IMG/VR virus record: IMGVR_UViG_3300045973_000529
Span: 126,500 to 190,499 of that record
Strand: one strand, 5' to 3'
DNA length: 64,000 nucleotides
Origin: a virus
Positions 4,401-32,005 of the stretch are shown here, one piece after another (position 1 is the stretch's first letter; every line of letters starts with the position of its first letter). The position numbers and the translations under genes were made by a program. Under the pieces are notes generated by a model that ran no database searches, had not been told where the DNA came from, and saw only the letters and a program-made list of their open reading frames with translations.

Positions 4401-7400
4401 ACTGGAACGGCAAGATTGGTTTCAAGATTCCACGCGCCAAGATCTATCGGTTCGATCCGGTTGATGGCACTCCGTTCGGCGAAGGTCCGTGGGCAGTGTC
4501 GAACGGCACCATCACCTGTACTCGTCTCCGGCCAGACACCCCAACCTCCTCGTATACCGTGACTTGCAACACTGCAGGGCATTGGATGCTGTTCCGCGAC
4601 GGTGCATTGGTGAGCGATGGCACGACCTCTGTCAGTGATCTGTACCTCACTCTTGCGCTGCCCACTGCGGTTGTCGATGTGACTTATCGATTCGGTGTAC
4701 GTGGGCATGACTACGCGATGGCTGAAGGACATGACCTGGCTATCATCAAGACGAGTGCCGGTCGATCGCCAACAGCCAATGACTTCGTGTTGCTTGAGCG
4801 CACAACTGCTGATCACCTGCAGATCTCGATCCAACCAAAGGACACAGCGCACGGACAAGTGCTTGATGCGTTGGCACCAGTTGTAACGGACCTCCGGTTC
4901 GTGGACCACAACGCGAACTCGAACGTTCCGCTGTCGGCAACTTCTCCTGAAACAGCGGTGCTAACCGGGTGGTTCGGTATCACCGAAACGAAGCTTGATA
5001 GTACCACATCAACCGCTGAGTTCAGTGACCCTCTGAAGACCGTCGTGGTCCGAGCCACTGCTACGGGTGAAACTGTCGGTGTGGTGTCGTCACTGGGCAC
5101 CACGGCTGCTGAGCCGGTGATCTTCCGTTGGGATCCAGCCTTCCACGCCAAGTACCTGCCACTGAACGCTCAAGCTACTGTGGTGACCCTTGGCTCTGGT
5201 ATGAACGAGGCGGTGCACGTGAACATGCACGATGCCGCCATGTTCTTGCTCGGTGGCGGTGGTTTGTCAACTGAAGCGTTCTTCACGGACGTTGCACAGG
5301 TTGCCTTCGTTGAGAATGGGCATCAGTGGGCAATGAACTTCAGCTATGGCGATGATGTCGGTGCTGCAGTGGCTGATACCGGGTTCACTGGGTTCTTGCC
5401 TGGCTACGACAACGTGCCGATGGACTTTGAACTTGGGGTTGGTGATGTGAACTCCGAAGCCGCGGCTTCGGGGTACTACGATGCTGGTGTTCCACTGACT
5501 GAGTACTTCCTGCAAGCTCAGTCACTGGCGCTGCTGCCGTCAATGACACCACAACAACAGGCGCTGTTCAATGATCTGACCAATGTTCTGTTCCCGTACC
5601 TCGACGGTGGTGATGTCATCACAACCACGATGGTTGAGTTCCTTGCGAACGTTGGTGCCTCGACTACGGTTCCAGTGTTCAACAACATCGTGAACTGGAC
5701 TGGCACCACCAATGGTTTCGGCATTCCAGACGTCGGCATGGGCATGGACATTGGTGAGACCCCGGTCAATACTGTCGGCACTGCGTTCGACGAAAGTCTG
5801 GCGATTCTTGCCATTGATCAGGCGTACACCTTTAGCGTTGGAACCTATGGTCAGGGTGGGTACGACGCTGCGTTCTCTGACACCATCTTCGTGACGTCAC
5901 CAACGCTGCCGCCTTCACCTGTTTCAGGGCTCCCATCAGTCGGTACCACTTACGCGAACTACAACGCAGCAATGGAAATCGGTCTGCCTGGAGCGCACAA
6001 CATCGAAGTGTCGTTCCTATCCGCTCTGCTGAACACACCTAACTTCTACATCTGGCGCCCAACAGACGTCTCACCGATGGTGGTTTCGGTCGTTGAGCGA
6101 CTGACGGACCGTGCCTTCCGATTCTCTGTGCCTGTTGGTGGCGAGATGAAGCTCATTGCTATTCCGAATTTGTACTACAATCCAGCTGACGCGAACGTGA
6201 AGCTCTTGCTGCACGGTGAAGGCACTGTTGGAACTGGCACATACATCGATTCGTCATCGTACAACCGCACGATGGCTGCAACTAGCAGCGTCGTTGTTCT
6301 TTCAACAGCGCAGCACTATCGCGGTCTGAGCTCATTGAACGTCATCGGGAATGTGAACTTCTCGACCCCAGCGCTGACCACGAACGAGTGGCTGTCGATG
6401 GGCACCACTGCCAATCCGCTCACCATCGAAATGGCGGTACAAGTTGCCGCTGGCAATCCAGGCGGCGTTCTGGCTGGCAATCCAGCGTTGACTGGTGGTA
6501 ACTTCGGTTGGTGGAAGTTCACGTTGGCGACTGACGTCGGCGTCGGTACCCCAACTCCTCGCATCATTCTTGCGTACAACGGTGGAACAGCATTCGTGCC
6601 GCTCACTGGTTGGACACACGGCACCGGCACCTGGCACATGATTGCCATCGCAATGCGTGGCACAACGAACTACGAGTTTGGCGTCTGGATGGATGGTGTC
6701 TGGAAGGGGTCTGCTACGCTGGCCAATCCAATCGTGACGCCGTTTGGACCTATCGACAGCGAGCTGAACCTTACCCGCTCGCAGGGTAATGACCAGTTCC
6801 TCGGTTATCTGGATGAAGTTCGCATCAGCAATGAGCTCTTCCTCCCATGGGGCAGCAACTACACACTGTGGCCATCTGAGTTCCCGAATCCGCCAGTGCC
6901 AGTTCCGACTGCACTTGCCTTGTGGCATGCTGAAGACCTGCTCGATAGCACAGCGAACAACGTGGACATCACCTCGGGCAATGCCACGGTATCGGCCGTC
7001 GACAAGAAGTTCGGCACCAATTCGTTCTTCTTCAACAGCACGTACCTGCTGGCACCGTCAAATGCAGCACTCAATCTTGGCACTGGGGACTTCACTGTCG
7101 AAGCCTTCGTGAAGCATCAAACCGGTACCTCCGGTTTCGGCGGCATCATCAGCGCAAACAGCGGCTCATCGCGAGTGTACCTCTTCGTTCAAGGACCAAC
7201 ACAGGCTCTCGGCTTCGGTGGTGACACGATGCCTGACTTCTCGACAGCAGCAAACACGCTGACAGCAAATGTCTGGCATCACGTTGCTGTCACCCGTCAG
7301 GGCACGACCCTGCGCCTGTTCGTTGATGGAATTCTTGGCAATACGGCAACTTGCGGTGTCACGGCACTTGCAAACTTCAGTGCAGGTGGCACATTGATTG

Positions 7401-7554: not shown

Positions 7555-7560
7555 TAAATA
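7555..7560 (+). promoter_or_regulatory. late promoter core TAAATA (gp55-type)
   Basis: TAAATA 25 nt upstream of ATG 7586. Resembles the T4 late promoter TATAAATA, and gp55 is encoded in this window. Confidence 0.75.
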
Positions 7561-10825: not shown

Positions 10826-13582
10826 ATGAAGATCAATGGTAAGCTCTCGTTTGACGCATCGTCTGCGTCACTGATCGAGAATCTGCGCGTCGAGCGCTTT
10901 GCAACCCTCGGCGCCGTGCCGTCGTACACTTCAGCGGACTCCGGTCGCGTGGTGTATGTCATCGGTACTGGCACGATGTACTACGGTGACAGCTTCACCG
11001 GCGCATGGATGCCGTTTGCTACGGGCGGCAACGCTTTCTCGCAAACCGAAGGTGACGCAATCGAAACGTCCCTTGGCGTTGGCATCAACGCTGATGGCAC
11101 GTTCAATGCTGCTGGTTTCACCAACACCCTCGCGCTGACGAACCCAACGTCGTTCTCGAATGCTATCCAGCAAATCGCGAACTACGCTACGGCCAACGAC
11201 ACGCTGTATGAACTGAATGACGTTTCGCTCTCGAACGCTGTTCCGACTGGCGCCAAGTTCCTGTACACCCCAGGTGGCGCGAACTGGGTTGATCACACCC
11301 TCGTGCTCGCTGACGTTTCTGACGTCACTGCTACCGCTGCTGAAGTCAATGAACTCGCTGGCGGCACCGCTGTCCAGGCCGACTTCATCAAGCTGCACAA
11401 CATCACTGCTTCGGCTGCTGACGTCAATGTGCTGACTGGCGCTTTCGCTGCTGGCATCACCACGACCGAGATCAGCTACCTCGATGGCGTGACTTCGTCG
11501 ATCCAAGGTCAACTCGACGGCAAGCAAGCACTCGATGCGACGCTGACCGCTCTTGCAGGCCTCGACACCACTGCTGGCATCGTTGTCCAGACTGGTACTG
11601 ACACCTTCACCAAGCGTACGCTGACTGCTCCTGCAGAAGGCCTGACCATCAGCAATCCTGCTGGCACCGCTGGCAACCCAACGTTCGCTCTCGCGAATGA
11701 CCTGGCTGCTCTTGAAGGTCTGACGTCTTCTGGCTACATCGTTCGCACTGGCGACGGCACTGCTACGACTCGCACGATCAACGGCGTTGCTGGTCGCACT
11801 GTTGTCACCAATGGTGACGGCGTTGCTTCGAACACCGACGTGGATCTGGACACTGTCACCCAAGGCTCTGGTGGTGCTTTCCTCAAGGTAACCCTCGACG
11901 CCTACGGCCGCGTTTCGCAGAACACTGCAGTTGTTGCTGGTGACATCACCGGTCTCGTTGACACCATCTACGTGAACGTCGCTGGCGACACGATGACTGG
12001 CAACCTGAACATGGGCACGAACTACGTGACCATGAACAACGCCCCAACGCTCGACACGCAAGCTGCCAACAAGGCCTACGTTGACTCCGTCGCCGCTGGT
12101 CTGTCGTGGAAGAATGCAGTTCGCGCTGCTTCGACCGGCAACGTTGCTGACCTGGCTGCAGTGACCGTCATCGATGGCATCACTCTGGTTGATGGCGACC
12201 GCGTCCTCCTGAAGAACCAAACCACCCCGTCTGCAAACGGCATCTACACCTACACTCTCAGCACGACCACTCTTGCCCGCTCGTCGGACATGAATGCTGC
12301 TGGCGAGTTCATGAGCGCTACCGTGTTCGTGTCGGAAGGTTCTGCCAACGCTGATAGCGGCTGGACGCAAACCGCTGAAGTCACGACCGTTGGTTCTGAC
12401 GCTGTTGTGTGGTACCAGTTCTCTGGTGCAAGCACATACACATGGGGCACGGGTCTCGGCAATACCGGTAACACGGTGTTCGTCAATCTGGGTGCTGGTA
12501 TCGCTGAACTCCCATCGGACGAAGTTGGTCTGGATCTGGTCTCCAACAAGGCTATCCAACTGACAAGCGCCCTCACTGGCGGTCAACTGACGTTCGTTCT
12601 GGACGGTGGTGCAGCTTCTGGTCTCGAGCAGTCGTCTGCTGGTCTGAAGATCTCGGCAAATGGCGTCACGAATGCCATGATCCTGAACGAGTCGATGACC
12701 TTCAACTCTGACTCTGGCAACTCAGTCACGGCTCTTGGCGACACGCTCATCATCGCTGGCACCGCTGCTCAAGGTATCCACACCTCTGCAGTGACTGGCA
12801 CGCTGACGATCACTGCTGACGACGCTTCGGCTTCGCAGAAGGGTGTTGCAACGTTCAACACGGCTTCGTTCGCCGTCACCGCTGGTGATGTCACGATCAA
12901 GGCTGCTGGTGTTTCGAATGCTCAGTTGGCCAACAGCACGATCGGCTTCACGGGTTCGGACGCTTCGTCTGACACCGTTTCCCTCGGCGGTACCCTGACC
13001 TTCATCGACGGCGCTACCCACGCTGCTGGCGACCTGGTCAAGACCTCGGTTGCTACTGACGCTGTCACCATCTCGATGCGTGAAGCTACCACTGGCGCTC
13101 TTGGCGTTGCATCGTTCGACGGCGCGCACTTCAGCGTCACCGCTGGTGCTGTCAGCCTGGCTGCTACGCTCGATGACCTGACCAATGTGTCGAATGCTGA
13201 TGCTGCTGCAACTGGTGACCTGCTCACCAAGACTGCTGGCGATTGGCAGAATGTCACCCGTGTTGCTGTTGTTGGTTCGACCTCAGTCGCTGACCACAAT
13301 GACGTCTCGGTCACGACTCCTGCTGCTGGCCAGACTCTGGTCTACATCGCTGGTGAATGGGTCAACCGCAAGGTCTTCCACACGGAAACCGTCGCTTCGT
13401 CTTCGACCTGGAACATCAACCACGCTCTCGGCCAGAAGTTCTGCAATGTCACCATTGCTGACGACACCGACAACGTGGTGATCCCACAGTCGATCGTGTT
13501 CTCGGACGCGAACAACCTGGTTGTGACCTTCAACACCGCTATCGCTGGCCAAGTCATGGTCTCGGGTGTTGCTGCTGCCTAA
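10826..13582 (+). CDS. 918-aa fibre-like virion protein
   Basis: SD AGGAG; Ala/Gly/Thr-rich; AANKAYVD...WKNAVRAAS...[11 protein letters not shown]...NGIY block typical of phage fibres; C-terminal repeat domain. Confidence 0.75.
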
Positions 13583-21238: not shown

Positions 21239-21257
21239 CAGAGAAGTGTAACAGTTC

Positions 21258-25054: not shown

Positions 25055-25180
25055 GTGCAAATTGTAACAAGTCACTGAAGGCCTGCTACTGAGCTTAGGG
25101 TCATCGAAGTCCGATGCGCTTACCGAGTTGTGACCAGATGAGGCGCAGCAGCGCATCATCCAGCCAAGCTTGTAGCTTCC

Positions 25181-27712
25181 TCATTCGCGCCAGCCCTTAG
25201 GACGACCGCCCTGCTTGAGGTTCACAGTGCGCAACATGTTCGCGTACTTCAGCGCGTCCTTGTAGCCGGCTTCGTCATCAGTGAAGTACTTCGTGTGCAG
25301 CTCGCCATCGAACGGACCGTCGATGCCGACTCGCAGAGTCTTCATGCCTTCCTTCTGAATGTCGATACCGACTGTCAGCACCGTCTCTTCATGATTGCCA
25401 CCTGGGTAGGTGGCCATGTGAGCAGGACCTGCAGCTGGTTCGTCAAGCTTGAAGTAGTGCGCATCAGCACGGGTCATCGCTTCGAGCTCATTGAATGCTT
25501 CATTCAGAGTCGATTCACCGAGACCGCCAGTGCCGCCATCAGGGAAGCCAGTGACGTACACGGTGGTGCCACGCACGGTGCAAGTGACATCATGCTTGTC
25601 GAGCTCGCGAGCAATCATCTCGGCAACTTCTGTTCGCGCAGTACGCAGATAGTTGTCAACGCATCCGAACTTGACGTTCATGTTCTTGCGCAACCAGCTA
25701 TTCACAGCGGTCATCGACATCATTGGGTGCATACGCTCTTCAACGACTGGCTCTTGCTGTGCTTGTGCAACAGGCTTCTTCACACCCAGTAGTCCAATCA
25801 ACGCTTCAATCTTCTGGTCCACCATTGAGCGCTGCTTCAGGCTGTTGCCAACATCTTCCAGCCCCTTCTTCAGCTGGGGCGCGCGATAGCTCAGATGCTC
25901 TTCAGGAACACCAAGAGCTCGAAGGAGCTCGATGGCTGCCTTGGCGTATGGGTTCGTCGACTTCACAGGGTTCAACTCGTCGATGCGCGACAGGAACCGG
26001 CTTCCAACCGTGTTCTCAACAACGTCCTTGCCAGGCTTCTTCTTTGGGTGCAGATCGGCTTCAGTATCGGCCAGATCTTCAGGAGCTTCAGAGCCATGCA
26101 CACCGAGTCGATTGGCAAGCATCACAAGCTTCGCCTTCAGTTCACCATGTTGGTCAACAGCCAGCGCTGCCTTTGCGATGAACGGTGCCAGAACGCCGGG
26201 ACCCTTCACAGTGATGAGACCCTCTGGAAGACCAAGAGCAACCAGAACCGCTTCAAGCTTCTTCTGGGTCGCTGCACCGCGCTTTGGGTCATGCTTCTCT
26301 GCAAGCTCCGCCTTCGTGACCTTTGGCACCGTGAGCGTGTAGCCCAGCGCAGTACCGAAGGCGTTGTAGAAGTCGTTGAAGGCGTTCTTCGCGGATGCAT
26401 TCTTGCGCAGCATGTCGCCAGCAGCACGAACGCGGTCAATCGCGTCAGGCTCATTCTTCAACAGTCGTCCAACGATACCAGACATCGCGAACAGAGCAAT
26501 GATCTTCTTCTCGATTGGGCGCTTCAGCTGCATGATCAGCTGCTTGTGTCCAGTTTCGAGAGGAATGTTCATCCCATCCTTCACCGAGTCGGTTTCGGTT
26601 GCCTTGGCTTCGTTCATTCGAGCCAAGAAGTTTGATCCAATGGTCATGTCAAAATCCTCAACGAGTTTCGGAGTGTACTTGTAGCTGGCAGTAGCACCAG
26701 CACGGTTCTTTTCCCTTGTGAGCCGTGCTGCTTCGAGCTCTGCCGCTTCGGCACTCTCAAAGTACGCAACTTCACCTGCACGCTTCAGCGGTGCAGACCG
26801 CAAGCCATTCGTGTCGCCAGAGATGGTCGACATGATCACGTACTTGCCCTTGTTTCCTTGTGCTTGGGCCGCATCCAGGTGCGCTTGAACTTCTTCACGA
26901 GCACCTTCAGCGAGTTTTCCCAGCAACGTGAATCCTTCTTCGGTGACGCCAGAGCCAAGCGAATCAAGATCGTCAAGTGACGGTTCCTTGTCCTCTTTCT
27001 TCTTCTTGCGCATCACTGGGTTGCCGTCCTTGTCGAGCTTCTGGGTGCCATCATCGTTCAGCACTGGCTCAAGTTCATCTTCCTCATCAGTGTCTTCGTC
27101 GGTCGATGCTTCAAGCTCACCCTTGCGAGGCACGTCAATGATCTCCTCTTCACCATCAGCAACTGGTTCATCAGCAACCGCTTCGGTCTCATCAGCTGGC
27201 GGAACATCAATGATCTCTTCATCGCCCGCTGCTTCCTCTTCCGGAGGCAGCTCATCGGTGATCTCAGCATCGATCGACAGATCAGCGTCCGGATCCTCTT
27301 CACCGGCGGTCGGGTCAGTTGGCCACACGACGTCGACGATGTCGAACTTCTGAGCCAGCTGGTTGATGGCTTCTTCCGTGTCGCCTTCAAGACCGAGGAG
27401 CTTCGACAGTTCTTGCTCGAACTGATCGGCGTCCTGCTGGTTCACGTACACCTTGATGATGTCGCCATCGTCCGTTTCAATCGCGAAGCCGACAGACTCG
27501 ACTTCGTCGTTCAGGTCCTGGGCACGCTCGAGGTAGTCGTTCACGTCAGAGCCAGTTACCTGACCGTCGGCGTTGATGGTGTTCCGCATCAGCGAGAAGC
27601 CGACATTCACCGGCTTGGAGGACATGTCCTGCGCACCAGCCGTTGAACCGTCGCTGGTCTTCAGATCGGCTTGGATGCTGCCCTTGGAGAGTTCTTTGAG
27701 GAGAGTGGTCAC
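25181..27712 (-). CDS. 843-aa multidomain acidic protein, putative head-internal protein
   Basis: Long Asp/Glu-rich tract; many internal [LV]xE sites; GTGA-coupled to the upstream late gene. Confidence 0.6.
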   Translation of the reverse strand: MTTLLKELSKGSIQADLKTSDGSTAGAQDMSSKPVNVGFSLMRNTINADGQVTGSDVNDYLERAQDLNDEVESVGFAIETDDGDIIKVYVNQQDADQFEQELSKLLGLEGDTEEAINQLAQKFDIVDVVWPTDPTAGEEDPDADLSIDAEITDELPPEEEAAGDEEIIDVPPADETEAVADEPVADGEEEIIDVPRKGELEASTDEDTDEEDELEPVLNDDGTQKLDKDGNPVMRKKKKEDKEPSLDDLDSLGSGVTEEGFTLLGKLAEGAREEVQAHLDAAQAQGNKGKYVIMSTISGDTNGLRSAPLKRAGEVAYFESAEAAELEAARLTREKNRAGATASYKYTPKLVEDFDMTIGSNFLARMNEAKATETDSVKDGMNIPLETGHKQLIMQLKRPIEKKIIALFAMSGIVGRLLKNEPDAIDRVRAAGDMLRKNASAKNAFNDFYNAFGTALGYTLTVPKVTKAELAEKHDPKRGAATQKKLEAVLVALGLPEGLITVKGPGVLAPFIAKAALAVDQHGELKAKLVMLANRLGVHGSEAPEDLADTEADLHPKKKPGKDVVENTVGSRFLSRIDELNPVKSTNPYAKAAIELLRALGVPEEHLSYRAPQLKKGLEDVGNSLKQRSMVDQKIEALIGLLGVKKPVAQAQQEPVVEERMHPMMSMTAVNSWLRKNMNVKFGCVDNYLRTARTEVAEMIARELDKHDVTCTVRGTTVYVTGFPDGGTGGLGESTLNEAFNELEAMTRADAHYFKLDEPAAGPAHMATYPGGNHEETVLTVGIDIQKEGMKTLRVGIDGPFDGELHTKYFTDDEAGYKDALKYANMLRTVNLKQGGRPKGWRE

Positions 27713-30054
27713 TTGACGTCCTTGTAGTTCCGTGGATCCTTGTGCTTGCGAGTCAAGGCAAGGAACTCCTTCGATTGATTTCGCCGACGCATCTCGGTCT
27801 TGCGGTTGTTGCCGAGTCCAGTCGGAACGGCTGAGATTGCACCGGCGTTTGTTGCTCCATTGGCTGGAACGCTGACTGGAACACCAGCTCCGGAATCAGC
27901 ACCTGCATCTCCGCCTTCACCCTCTTCGGTGAGGGCTGCGATGCGCTTCAACAGGCCTTCAGTTACCACGTCTTCATCCTTCAAGTCATGCGCAATCGGC
28001 TTCAGCCGAGGGTAGAGGCGCGAGTTCGGTACAAACTGCCGCACAAATGCAGACAGCTTCTTGATGAAGCTCTTCTGCTCAGCCACATCGAGTTCTGGAA
28101 ACCGGATCGACAGATCAAGCAGGCTATTTACACGCTCAGTCCGAACACCGGACAGATCGATGAGTCGCTGCAGCATTCGACGGTGATCAGACCACTGAAT
28201 CTTGCGTTCGCCGTTCGCGCTGAAGTCCAGGTGAAAGTACTTCCACCACGGGGCTGGGATCTTCTTCGTGATGGCCAGCACTTCAAGACGTGTCTTTGGT
28301 GTCAGGTGATCTTCGAGCTCTGGCTTGGCAGCGCGCCACACGGCGTACCCCCAGTGATTCAGCGGGCTCATCTCATCGTCATGCTTCAAGAGCCGCCAGT
28401 TCTTCCGGTCACGAAGGAAGCGCAGGCCAATCATGTCCTGTGAGTGCACGACCAACATGCTCATGAACACGGTACCGAGGAACGCATTCACGAGGTGCCA
28501 GGTGTCTCGACGATTGAAGTCAGCGAGGCTGATCTCGGTGGCCGGAGCATGCTTCTTCTTTGGCTTGCCCTTCTCGAGCAACAGTCCTTCACCAAGCTTC
28601 TCAGCATGAACTGCTCGAGCTGCTGAACCGTACAGCACAGCCAGCAGACCAGCCAGTGACTTCGTGCCCTTGAGCTTGTCGAACAGCTCCTTCAGGTTCC
28701 GATGCGCTTCAGCAAAGGTCAACAGCGTCTTCTTCACGGTCTCGTCTGACAGACCGATCTCCTTGCCGTTCTTCAGCTGGAGCTTGTAGTTCCCGTGATC
28801 GGTCTTGAAGGCCTCAAGCTTGTCGCCGAGCTCCTTGTACGTCTCGGAGGCGATGGCGAGGATCTTCTTCTTCACCGCTTCGTGATCCGTGAGCGATGAC
28901 ATTGACTTCGCGAGGTTCTTGATTGTCTCTTCAGCGCTATCGCCCTTCACCGGCTCCATGGCCTTGCGGACATTGGATGCCTTGGCGAGCTCACGGTTTC
29001 CCAGAGCCTCAGCGAAGCGGATTCGCATCTGACCTAGCAGACCACCGCGGGCTTCCAACGGAGCGTCAGGATCAGTGGTGTTCAGGGCCGACTGGACCTC
29101 ACCACGTGGCGTCTGGTTGAACTTGTTGATGGCAGTGAAGACGTCACGATCGACGATCTTGACTTGATTGCCACTGGCATCGCGGAGCACGATGCCCTCG
29201 ATGCCAACATCCTCGTCCGGCTTGATGTCATCGGCAGCGAGTCCCGACTTGCGGTGCAGCTTCGACAGCAGCGCCGCCTTGATTGGGAGCTGGTAGTCGT
29301 TCAGGAGCGTCGTGAGCAGCGCTTCCTTGGCTGGCTTGAACCCGCTCTTCAGCTCCTTCGGGACTGAGCTGACCATCGTGGTCGCAAGCTTCAGGTTCGA
29401 GAAGTTGCTGAAGCCTGACGGCTTCTTGAGGAAGGCATCGAGCTTGTCGAGCATCGGCTCGATGCCTGCATCAGCCTTGAGCTTCTTGGTGTCGAGCTTA
29501 TGGGGTGACACGAACTGGAACGTCACCGAGATGTTCGTGGTCGACAGCTCCTTGCCATCAGCCGTGTCGACGACGTCGACCTTGGCTTCAGCCTGCTGGT
29601 TCACAAGGCTCGAGGCGAGGTGATCGGCAATCTCGTTTGGCGTGTCATTCACACCGCGTAGGAACGCGACGAAGGACATTCCGTGTGCACCATACGTGAC
29701 ACTATTAGGTTGGCGACCGAACAACACCTCGGCCTCAACCGTGTCGCCAGGGCGCAGTACGCGTTGAATCTCCTGGCTCTTAGCTGCAATGGCAGCGTGC
29801 GCAGCACGGAACTGGTTGAACGCTGAGATGAGCGGCCAGTCCTCCGGAGTGTACCGTCGTTCAGCACCGTTCCGCTTCCCTTCGCGGGATGTGAACAGCT
29901 TTCCCTCTTCATCTGACCCGACCCAGAGCTGAGCACCGTCAAGCTTCTCCTGAGCAGCCATCGTGGCCATATTCCGGAGCGTGTCGACGAACTCGTCGAT
30001 TGGAAGGTCCTCGATGTGAGTGATGCCTTCGGTGAGGATTCGTTGGATGTGCAT
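27709..30054 (-). CDS. covalent nucleotidyltransferase (RNA/DNA ligase-fold) with long C-terminal extension
   Basis: Motif I EKLDG, III EAEVLF, IIIa AFLR, IV EGIVLR, V VKIVD. Confidence 0.7.
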   Translation of the reverse strand: MHIQRILTEGITHIEDLPIDEFVDTLRNMATMAAQEKLDGAQLWVGSDEEGKLFTSREGKRNGAERRYTPEDWPLISAFNQFRAAHAAIAAKSQEIQRVLRPGDTVEAEVLFGRQPNSVTYGAHGMSFVAFLRGVNDTPNEIADHLASSLVNQQAEAKVDVVDTADGKELSTTNISVTFQFVSPHKLDTKKLKADAGIEPMLDKLDAFLKKPSGFSNFSNLKLATTMVSSVPKELKSGFKPAKEALLTTLLNDYQLPIKAALLSKLHRKSGLAADDIKPDEDVGIEGIVLRDASGNQVKIVDRDVFTAINKFNQTPRGEVQSALNTTDPDAPLEARGGLLGQMRIRFAEALGNRELAKASNVRKAMEPVKGDSAEETIKNLAKSMSSLTDHEAVKKKILAIASETYKELGDKLEAFKTDHGNYKLQLKNGKEIGLSDETVKKTLLTFAEAHRNLKELFDKLKGTKSLAGLLAVLYGSAARAVHAEKLGEGLLLEKGKPKKKHAPATEISLADFNRRDTWHLVNAFLGTVFMSMLVVHSQDMIGLRFLRDRKNWRLLKHDDEMSPLNHWGYAVWRAAKPELEDHLTPKTRLEVLAITKKIPAPWWKYFHLDFSANGERKIQWSDHRRMLQRLIDLSGVRTERVNSLLDLSIRFPELDVAEQKSFIKKLSAFVRQFVPNSRLYPRLKPIAHDLKDEDVVTEGLLKRIAALTEEGEGGDAGADSGAGVPVSVPANGATNAGAISAVPTGLGNNRKTEMRRRNQSKEFLALTRKHKDPRNYKDVK

Positions 30055-30058
30055 CGAC

Positions 30059-30064
30059 TATTTA
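30059..30064 (-). promoter_or_regulatory. late promoter core TAAATA
   Basis: 4 nt upstream of ATG 30054. Confidence 0.7.
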
Positions 30065-30078
30065 GGTCCGGATGCACA

Positions 30079-30100
30079 CAAGGGACCCGAAGGTCCCTTG
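30079..30100 (-). terminator. hairpin with UUCG loop (probable terminator)
   Basis: CAAGGGACC-TTCG-GGTCCCTTG on the - strand after the lipoprotein gene; U-tract is weak. Confidence 0.6.
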
Positions 30101-30128
30101 CTATTCGTCGGCTAATGCCGACAGGGCG

Positions 30129-30923
30129 TCAGGCGCCGGTGCCGAAGAGGATGCGGTGCGGTGCCGGATCCATACGCAGGATGAACACGATGACTTGCTG
30201 GGCTGGGTTGTAGCTGATGATGCCGCGAGCAAGCTGCGTGGGGTACAGACACAGCGAAGAATCACTGAACTGGATCGTGATGCGTGCGAACCCACGACCA
30301 GAATCCGTACTCGAACCAGCGAATGAGCATCCGTTGATGTTGCCTGTCCAGCTCTTTGGCGCAGCCTGGGCACTCGCGCTCAGCGCGGTCGTGCGGGACG
30401 TCGACAGCGTGATGGACGGTGCGCTCAGCGTGGTGGTTCTCGCCAGCGGGTAGACCAAATTCCAGCTGAGCGACCATTGGCCGCTGGGGATATTGCCAGT
30501 GGTAGCGAGCCCTGCTCGCGATGCTGAACCGCTCGTCGTAGCACCGAAGGCTTGCGTCGTGAACTGCAAGCGGTCATCCACAATGTTGCCCGCAACATCG
30601 ATGCCGCTGTAAAACAGGCCGCGGTAATCGTTGCGATACGTGGTGCCAGAAACACCGAAGGCGCCGCTGTTTGCCACGGTCACATCGCCAACGCTAACAC
30701 CCGCAACAGTCGGGTTGATCGGGCGATCGACGGCGATCGAGTAGAACCTGCCGTCGGTGTCGATGATCAGCCGGCTATTGGGGTTGACGTCATTGACGTA
30801 GGCACCCGCCATCGTCTCGATTGAGTGGCTCGACGGGGCCGGTGCCGGCGAATCACCACCGCCACCGCCACCACAAGCGGCGAGGCTGAGAACGAGCGAT
30901 ACGATTGCGAGAGAGCACTTCAT
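30129..30923 (-). CDS. secreted lipoprotein
   Basis: MKCSLAIVSLVLSLAAC lipobox, then GGGGGGDSPAP linker and a beta-rich body; TGATATGAT extended -10 upstream. Confidence 0.8.
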   Translation of the reverse strand: MKCSLAIVSLVLSLAACGGGGGGDSPAPAPSSHSIETMAGAYVNDVNPNSRLIIDTDGRFYSIAVDRPINPTVAGVSVGDVTVANSGAFGVSGTTYRNDYRGLFYSGIDVAGNIVDDRLQFTTQAFGATTSGSASRAGLATTGNIPSGQWSLSWNLVYPLARTTTLSAPSITLSTSRTTALSASAQAAPKSWTGNINGCSFAGSSTDSGRGFARITIQFSDSSLCLYPTQLARGIISYNPAQQVIVFILRMDPAPHRILFGTGA

Positions 30924-30985
30924 GATGTTTTCCAGTGGTTGACGAGGAAGACATCATATCACCGTGCTCGACTACGCGCCAACTG

Positions 30986-31654
30986 TTACATTCGTTTTGC
31001 CTTGAAGATCAGGGCTCCAAGACCCGCCAAGAACAGCAGGTAGACAGAAGGTTCAGGCACTGCCGGGAGAGGCACTGCCGGGAGAGGCGGCACAGGAGTT
31101 GCCGTCGCATTGCTGAATGCGACGTTGTCGAACAGGAATTGGTTCGAGTCGCTACCGTCACCGAAGCCGCCGCCCGGCGTTTTGAACGCGAAGGCAAAGG
31201 CAGTGATCTGTCCAGTGTATCCAGTGCTCGAAGCCACGTTGAGTGTCGCGCCGCCAGGCACGTCAATCGGTGATCGGAACTGGAGCTTTCCAGCATTGTT
31301 CGTCGTGCCGCTGAACACTGTGTTCGCGCCGTTGTACATCACAAGGTATGCGACACCACCATTCGATCGACCGCCGTACGTGAAGCTGTCGAGCGTAAAT
31401 GCCGAGTGATCAGCTCGCTGGATCAGGTTGCTTCGAGCACCGCCATTTGTTGACAGGGCCAGGTACGGATCACGTAGCTCTGTCTTGGGGTTGTCGAACC
31501 AGGCCGGGCCGAAGGTGAAGCCACCGTAGTCGGTGCTGAAGTTCGGATCGGCGTTGTGCGAGAAGGACGTGAAGTCGAGAACGCCAGACACTGCGAAGGC
31601 CGAGCTGGCGACAAGCAGCAGTACGCCGGTGATGAAGGATCGAAGAGAAGCCAT
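30986..31654 (-). CDS. PEP-CTERM sorting-domain surface protein
   Basis: Start re-called at ATG 31654; signal peptide ...VASSAFA; C-terminus AVPEPSVYLLFLAGLGALIFKAKRM. Confidence 0.85.
   Translation of the reverse strand: MASLRSFITGVLLLVASSAFAVSGVLDFTSFSHNADPNFSTDYGGFTFGPAWFDNPKTELRDPYLALSTNGGARSNLIQRADHSAFTLDSFTYGGRSNGGVAYLVMYNGANTVFSGTTNNAGKLQFRSPIDVPGGATLNVASSTGYTGQITAFAFAFKTPGGGFGDGSDSNQFLFDNVAFSNATATPVPPLPAVPLPAVPEPSVYLLFLAGLGALIFKAKRM
31055..31084. repeat. 15-bp tandem duplication encoding (PLPAV)x2
   Basis: AGGCACTGCCGGGAG twice, just before the PEP motif. Confidence 0.85.
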
Positions 31655-31697
31655 GTGGTTTCCGAGTTGTTGAAGGGCTATTATACACCGGAAACGA

Positions 31698-31722
31698 GAA
31701 GAGCCGCACAAGGCGGCTCTTC
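31698..31722 (-). terminator. intrinsic terminator
   Basis: GAAGAGCCGC-CTTGT-GCGGCTCTTC followed by TCGTTT on the - strand. Confidence 0.7.
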
Positions 31723-31738: not shown

Positions 31739-32005
31739 TTACTCGGCCGGGACGGCCTCGACTGGTGCAGCGTCGTTCGCAGCGGTTGCGGCAGCCTTGG
31801 CTTCCAGTTCCTTCTTGACGGCTTCAGTGATCTGAGCGCCGAGGTGCTGGATGGCGGACTGGGTCTTCAGGACCGCGAGCTGTTCCTTCTGCAGTTCAGC
31901 AGCGAAGCCGTTGTAGATCGCCACAGCCTGAACGACTTGAGCGCTGAAATCGCTCAGTGGGTATTGGACGCCGTCGAGGGTGATGGTCTGGACTTGTTCG
32001 GTCAT
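31739..32005 (-). CDS. small coiled-coil late protein (DUF6447-like)
   Basis: TITLDGVQYPLSDFS...; SD AGGAG; TAAATA at 32044-32049 and 32069-32074. Confidence 0.6.
   Translation of the reverse strand: MTEQVQTITLDGVQYPLSDFSAQVVQAVAIYNGFAAELQKEQLAVLKTQSAIQHLGAQITEAVKKELEAKAAATAANDAAPVEAVPAE

Follow-up and report, generated by a model that had tools for sequence, protein, structure and literature searches.

How does a virus come to encode a protein that bears a complete bacterial sorting tag, and which enzyme would act on that tag? The question is raised by two adjacent genes in a 64,000-nt stretch of viral DNA (the window), which spans bases 126,500–190,499 of the 190,499-bp IMG/VR record IMGVR_UViG_3300045973_000529 and so forms the end of that record. 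One gene (30986–31654) encodes P0001, a 222-residue protein with a Sec signal and a PEP-CTERM tail, and the other (30129–30923) encodes P0002, a putative lipoprotein of 264 residues; coordinates here and below are window positions on the minus strand unless another locus or strand is named. In outer-membrane bacteria, PEP-CTERM proteins co-occur with EpsH/exosortase and with exopolysaccharide genes, and exosortase is presumed to cleave their tails and hand the proteins on (Haft et al. 2006, PMC1569441). Sorting of this kind is common in bacteria of soil, sediment and sludge and is tied to exopolysaccharide and floc formation, and its biochemistry is poorly known; the floc protein PepA of Zoogloea resiniphila is a PEP-CTERM substrate according to the account given in PMC12642866 of Gao et al. 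2018. An initial annotation, made from the letters of the window alone, described the pair as a moron of a lytic T4-like phage. The explanation that we favour, and to which we give an even chance of being right as a whole, is a moron whose PEP-CTERM protein uses the exosortase of the host and whose lipoprotein goes to the outer membrane, the two altering the envelope.

By its sequence features, P0001 is a genuine PEP-CTERM protein. Its predicted layout comprises a signal peptide (residues 1–21), a jelly roll (~22–184), a proline-rich linker (185–198) and the sorting tail (199–222; 30989–31060). The N-terminus, read directly from the translation, offers a basic residue (R5), a hydrophobic core (8–17) and AFA (19–21) before VS, and the tail consists of VPEP (199–202), a hydrophobic helix of about 15 residues (203–217) and the basic cluster KAKR (218–221), with M as the last residue. 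Both curated hidden Markov models (HMMs) for the tail, named in the initial annotation as the way to check it, match from residue 198 or 199 to 221 and exceed their cut-offs: PF07589 scores 24.2 bits against 20.7 (residues 198–221 of 222) and TIGR02595 scores 21.7 bits against 16. A six-frame scan of the record returned this site as the sole PF07589 match (27.6 bits, E 9e-7). The closest homologues, 57–61% identical overall by BLASTP, retain signal peptide and tail, and in the four closest of them V199, P200, E201, P202, L209, A210, G211, F217, K218 and R221 are invariant; across 36 aligned family members, phage-borne ones included, V199 and P200 are invariant and E201 nearly so. Just before VPEP, a perfect 15-bp tandem duplication of 2.3 copies (31055–31088) encodes a doubled LPAVP in the linker, and since the homologues hold a single copy, the duplication is probably recent. 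The tails of the homologues P0004, P0005, P0011 and P0022 are of PEPxxY(L/A) or of PEPxxWA type, and NF035944, the PEPxxWA-CTERM model, is matched by 7 of 16 P0001 relatives; this variation within the family may mirror differences in exosortase class from host to host.

Exosortase (PF09721) has no match in the window, as the initial annotation had remarked, nor in the rest of the record, and none was found either in the fragment of a second phage that carries a homologue of P0001 or in five related phages, two of them 94% and 98% complete. Since no exosortase was found in the phage lineage, processing of the P0001 tail would have to be the work of a host enzyme, and a complete tag in a phage with no enzyme found would imply that the virus relies on the pathway of its host. 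In its signal peptide, variable secreted domain, VPEP, helix and basic cluster, P0001 resembles the bacterial substrates of exosortases (EpsH, XrtA); it departs from the bacterial system in being encoded by a single-copy gene in a virus with no detected exosortase. Bacteria with PEP-CTERM proteins typically have several per genome, with a median of eight, and proteobacterial PEP-CTERM genes have a sigma-54 site (Haft et al. 2006, PMC1569441), whereas the signals in front of the P0001 gene are of phage type.

The homologue in the second phage, P0003, is 61% identical to P0001, has signal and tail intact, and sits in an independent IMG/VR phage fragment (L002) whose record shares with this phage a UvrD helicase at 66–70% identity. 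It lies in a different neighbourhood and is not accompanied by a P0002-like lipoprotein. About 250 nt upstream of the PEP-CTERM gene L002 carries a tRNA-Ser (GGA), and it also holds a tRNA-Arg (CCT), a non-specific endonuclease (PF01223) and a D-Ala-D-Ala carboxypeptidase (PF00768), the tRNA, endonuclease and carboxypeptidase features standing at 1462–1553, 4938–5723, 10891–11736 and 12190–12264 of that fragment.

The record that carries the pair is a fragment of an uncultured T4-like jumbo myovirus. This assignment follows from its gene content (baseplate wedge proteins, a DnaB-type helicase, a primase, SbcCD-like nuclease subunits, an exonuclease and virion structural proteins) and from its relatives of 332–336 kb, found through the helicase and 94–98% complete. 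The record itself has a completeness of ~52% (CheckV) and a G+C content of 56.7%. The label "lytic" draws solely on the T4-like gene content and on the absence of a tyrosine integrase from the part of the genome in hand, about half. Neither DNA nor protein of the cassette matched anything among the INPHARED phages and the PLSDB plasmids. A search for the host with profiles A1 and A2 brought no confirmed relative from genome-contig scans, and metagenome scans gave just two short contigs with distant relatives, one of them cellular-looking.

That the pair was inserted into this genome emerges from a comparison with 16 related loci, fetched via the helicase (42–88% identity). The order of primase, helicase, 88-aa gene, 781-aa gene and 843-aa gene is kept in 13 of the 16, most of which also keep the exonuclease. 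In these 13 loci the 88-aa gene (the upstream border in the window, 31739–32005) directly follows the helicase and in most of them lies only ~110–190 bp from the late 781-aa gene (the downstream border, 27709–30054); in at least eight relatives no open reading frame (ORF) stands between the two. In the window this gap is filled by the 1.6-kb pair, co-oriented with the flanking genes. Neither P0001 nor P0002 occurs at the junction in any of the 13 related loci, and the five relatives searched for exosortase also contain no PEP-CTERM domain and no relative of P0002, whose profile did recover its own gene in the record as a positive control. Because at least eight related phages keep the flank order without the two genes, the pair is, on this comparison, a true moron-type insertion in a T4-like phage, much as the initial annotation had proposed. 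At the same junction, locus L008 (9043–9834) holds a 43-aa ORF and a ~200-aa ORF behind a TAAATA motif of their own, and the longer spacer of L009 (3740–3980) appears from its DNA to hold a similar small ORF. These ORFs are unrelated to P0001 and P0002; the N-terminus of the ~200-aa product may, by eye, be GIY-YIG-like. With different cargo in other relatives, this variable junction of the replication/late-gene region is an insertion hot spot.

The borders of the insertion point to a way in which the cassette could have arrived. In the closest relatives, the single spacer unit between the two conserved genes is made up, in order, of a hairpin, CGTTTCCGG and (G)CC-TAAATAG, after which a few bases remain before the 781-aa gene begins with its ATG. 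This unit is present once in the relatives and twice in the window, where the copies bracket the cassette. Copy 1 (31678–31722) comprises a hairpin with a 10-bp stem (31698–31722), CGTTTCCGG (31688–31696) and TATAATAG (31685–31678), the last of which aligns with the TAAATAG of the relatives; it is placed 31 nt before the ATG of P0001 and most resembles the unit of L012 and L004, the nearest relatives. Copy 2 (30058–30123), downstream of P0002, comprises two hairpins (30106–30123 and 30079–30100, the latter with a UUCG loop) and a TAAATAG (30064–30058) 10 nt before the 781-aa gene, and is more like the unit of the more distant relatives L013, L009 and L008. The bracketing hairpins were already seen in the initial annotation, whose span of 30079–31722 runs from hairpin to hairpin, and they stand up to folding: against shuffled sequence the upstream hairpin (31698–31722) has a z of -5.0 and the downstream pair (30079–30123) a z of -3.7, both being stable and without a clear U-run. 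This arrangement makes it plausible that recombination between junction units brought the cassette in. In T4-type phages, genes are shuffled by means of cassettes that combine a stem-loop with a promoter (PeSLs; Arbiol et al. 2010, PMC2839356). The present case resembles them in that a hairpin plus promoter stands on both sides of an accessory block in a T4-like genome, with other cargo held by relatives. PeSLs carry a strong sigma-70 early promoter, whereas the junction unit carries the late-type TAAATAG; again unlike PeSLs, the unit is not found genome-wide, one other TTTCCGG-TAAATAG site having been seen. The late motif ends 3–5 nt before the ATG of the 781-aa gene (30052–30064), as it does in L012, L004, L010 and L013, so that this gene may have either a leaderless transcript or a true start further in.

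The T4 late promoter is TATAAATA, and it is from the resemblance to this sequence that TAAATAG is read as the late promoter of the present phage. The 190 kb hold 28 copies of the motif, usually with a C or G in front and for the most part 27–34 nt before the starts of large structural genes; examples in the window are those at 7555, 8248 and 59244 on the plus strand and at 30064 and 45413 on the minus strand. The initial annotation gave each gene of the pair its own sigma-70-type -10 element. Both sites are indeed present, but the TATAAT before P0001 (31685–31680) is part of the junction unit and not a free-standing host promoter, and the -10 of P0002 falls with a putative phage class. Within TATAATAG the late consensus is broken at 2–3 positions, with the effect of yielding a perfect TATAAT. 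This hexamer is depleted in the genome, with 6 occurrences on both strands against ~39 expected from base composition by a hand calculation, and for that reason its presence before P0001 is unlikely to be meaningless; it may serve host sigma-70, the late machinery or both. The P0001 leader has GGAAAC 6 nt before the ATG, like the leaders of late genes. In the second phage, a canonical GTAAATAG stands 36 nt ahead of the start codon of the PEP-CTERM gene, which makes late expression of P0001 at least as likely as early expression.

A different set of signals precedes P0002. Its promoter-like region (30953–30990) comprises a TGTAAC box (30990–30985) that overlaps the stop codon of P0001, TTGGCG (30982–30977) and TG-A-TATGAT (30961–30953); the box lies 32 nt before the -10, TTGGCG lies 18 nt upstream of TATGAT, and the -35 and -10 together match the consensus at 9 of 12 positions, with an added TG. 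Throughout the record, a TGTAAC/GTTACA box in either orientation stands 31–33 nt before TAnnnT at 20 sites, whereas the other three-base spacing bins between 10 and 69 nt hold 0–6 box sites each, mostly 1–3. Sites of this kind in the window are at 21247, 21564, 30990, 40472 and 43061 on the minus strand and at 25063, 40472 and 49451 on the plus strand; many sites of the class have a GTGTAC ~17 nt before the -10 and an ATG just 5–9 nt after it. These counts argue for placing the predicted -10 of P0002 in a class of promoters that is specific to the phage and marked by a box further upstream. A generic sigma-70 scan found 1 site where 0.9 were expected, that is, chance level, and the putative promoters gain weight from the phage-wide motif statistics only. 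A fold scan of the cassette found no hairpin between P0001 and P0002, and since none separates them, P0002 could also be read through from P0001.

What the tail would present at the cell surface is suggested by family relationships and by a predicted structure. The QFxxD PEP-CTERM family model NF038120 aligns to residues 78–220 of P0001 (E 6.7e-8) and is matched by 15 of 16 P0001 relatives; the whole protein scores 32.7 bits against a cut-off of 80, and on that account P0001 is a sister group or relative of the family and not a member. The motif itself reads QFLFD (172–176), with D176 invariant in the 36 aligned relatives, and in length, too, P0001 is similar to the proteins of that family. 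The clade around P0001 is small: a library of 1.8 billion representatives gave 103 proteins at E ≤ 0.001 and 8 clusters below 1e-10, all of them metagenomic, as were all the proteins found with profile A3, and one distant relative sits on a contig with ordinary cellular genes. The body of P0001 matches no Pfam carbohydrate-binding module (CBM) family, no PF14717, no PHROG and no PADLOC entry, no sequence relatives of the cassette proteins are in the PDB, and viral predicted structures gave no meaningful match.

An AlphaFold2 (AF2) model built from 36 sequences, with a predicted local distance difference test (pLDDT) score of 79.8, folds P0001 into a beta jelly roll (19–184), a flexible linker and a C-terminal helix (204–221). 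In VIA-align, the jelly roll reaches Z 9–10 to CBM29, to ligand-binding proteins of the DUF4465/BtuJ kind and to receptor-binding domains of binary toxins. The structures of CBM29 (1gwk, 1wcu) and of DUF4465/BtuJ (4jqr, 9i2l, 9hmu) give Z 9.0–9.8 with a root-mean-square deviation of 3.4–3.7 Å over 125–148 residues, and differ from P0001 in sequence (identity 9–15%). Foldseek placed its best match at E 2.8e-3, and matches in the Atlas are DUF4465-like with template-modelling scores of 0.51–0.59; DUF4465 proteins there often bear C-terminal sorting tags, as P0001 does. Because the jelly-roll fold is common, ligand and function are not transferable from these structures, and it is reasonable, if unproven, to regard the modelled body of P0001 as a ligand-binding, probably glycan-binding, surface module.

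As judged from its N-terminus, P0002 is a genuine lipoprotein, the neighbouring LAAC-Gly lipoprotein of the initial annotation. It begins with MK, a hydrophobic stretch and the lipobox LAAC (Cys17), followed by six glycines, a Pro/Ala-rich tether and an all-beta body; lipobox and glycine run are conserved in its relatives. At the sequence level it is related solely to bacterial lipoproteins whose N-terminus is the same, for example one annotated as hypothetical in Cupriavidus sp. a3 (E ~1e-4), and its look-alikes in the Atlas form large clusters of ~260-aa proteins of Pseudomonadota. The protein falls into no family of Pfam, PHROGs, NCBIfam or PADLOC, and its AF2 model (pLDDT 43.6) is too poor to use. 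With Gly at +2, it would by the E. coli rule be sorted to the outer membrane. Phage-encoded outer-membrane lipoproteins that block receptors include Llp of T5 and Cor of phi80 and N15, both much smaller than P0002. P0002 shares with them a phage origin, a lipobox, the lack of Asp at +2 and the status of an accessory gene with its own predicted promoter, and differs from them in having neither sequence nor family similarity to either.

From these properties we infer the following course of events. P0001 would be exported by Sec and held in the inner membrane by its C-terminal helix, until host exosortase cleaves it at VPEP and delivers the jelly roll to the exopolysaccharide layer or the cell surface. 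The Lgt/Lsp/Lol pathway of the host would most likely deliver P0002 to the outer membrane, and P0001 and P0002 would between them remodel the infected cell's envelope or slime layer. The role that we prefer is that this change would lower the adsorption of further phages to infected cells or debris; another idea is altered floc cohesion, and superinfection exclusion, receptor masking and floc or biofilm effects are the conceivable roles that the initial annotation put forward. Several observations weigh against this account. With ~52% of the phage genome in hand, the missing half could still hold an exosortase. The record has one PEP-CTERM gene and the five relatives have none, and near-complete relatives exist without either gene of the cassette. 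As the second phage carries its homologue without a lipoprotein, P0001 and P0002 need not act together, and the structural matches of the modelled jelly roll are to a very common fold, which is no proof of glycan binding.

The main rival, itself rather unlikely, dispenses with exosortase altogether: the C-terminal helix would tether the jelly roll at the periplasmic face of the inner membrane, where the unprocessed protein could act, as some exclusion proteins do, for example on the injection of incoming phage DNA or on envelope polymers. A signal peptide and a C-terminal helix alone would give just such a bitopic inner-membrane protein, and the failure to find an exosortase in any phage record examined fits this idea. 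A plain anchor, however, would have no need of VPEP, the very part of the tail that is kept in the 57–61% homologues and throughout the 36 members, and the tail passes the curated PEP-CTERM cut-offs; it is this conservation that leads us to favour exosortase processing. It is less probable again, and on the whole improbable, that the pair is a neutral passenger, bacterial DNA carried without benefit and heading for loss, even though it is absent from the junction in all relatives examined and from two near-complete genomes, the P0001 family is confined to two records in viral collections and no member of the P0002 family turned up in other viral contigs. Neither reading frame is interrupted, the export signals are complete, codon use is at the phage norm, promoter and leader elements are of phage type, and the second phage has kept its 61%-identical homologue with signal and tail undamaged.

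That the stretch is a bacterial fragment joined into a phage contig during assembly, a possibility raised with the initial annotation, is very improbable and was rejected. Both genes do resemble bacterial protein families, and their G+C is slightly above that of their neighbours. G+C, G+C at third codon positions (GC3) and codon use nevertheless deviate from those of the phage genes by z values of -0.1 to 1.7, with codon use and GC3 within 1 standard deviation; both junctions lie inside duplicated phage-specific units that align with the relatives; the genes run with their flanks; and the predicted promoter class is phage-wide. Together with the occurrence of P0003 in an independent phage record, this argues that the segment is not chimeric. 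Hardly any likelihood attaches to a lysis pair, in which the two genes would form a two-component spanin of inner-membrane protein and outer-membrane lipoprotein, as the adjacency of a membrane-anchored periplasmic protein and a lipoprotein might suggest. P0001 is predicted to be a C-terminally anchored beta jelly roll and not an N-terminally anchored coiled coil, neither gene has a PHROG lysis match, and near-complete relatives that lack the pair must still lyse their hosts. O-spanins are moreover far shorter than the 264-aa P0002, and this candidate too was rejected on anchor, fold, lipoprotein length and absence from those relatives.

The favoured account, a moron whose tagged protein borrows the exosortase of the host, also invites a wider reading, which for now is a tentative one: phage-borne exosortase substrates could be an unrecognised class of viral cargo, with a virulent jumbo phage re-dressing the exopolysaccharide layer of its host by means of a glycan-binding protein and a helper lipoprotein and thereby controlling superinfection, how many progeny are lost on debris, or how well flocs hold together. 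In the searchable literature, no paper was found that treats phage-encoded PEP-CTERM proteins as its subject; one preprint refers to a protein with a PEP-CTERM domain on a mobile element or virus of Dehalococcoides. To this the present case contributes a jumbo T4-like carrier, an insertion mapped against 13 related loci, promoter classes, a jelly-roll model and a companion lipoprotein, and it shows at base-pair resolution the entry of a cassette into a T4-like genome between duplicated hairpin-promoter units. If the reliance on host exosortase is true, P0001 would be a compact and naturally portable substrate for studying exosortase processing. Its tag would also serve as a host-range marker, since the host would have to be a diderm bacterium with an exosortase, and the type of tail could report the exosortase class that the phage is able to use. 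More broadly, such cargo would offer a route by which phages alter the surfaces of biofilms or flocs.

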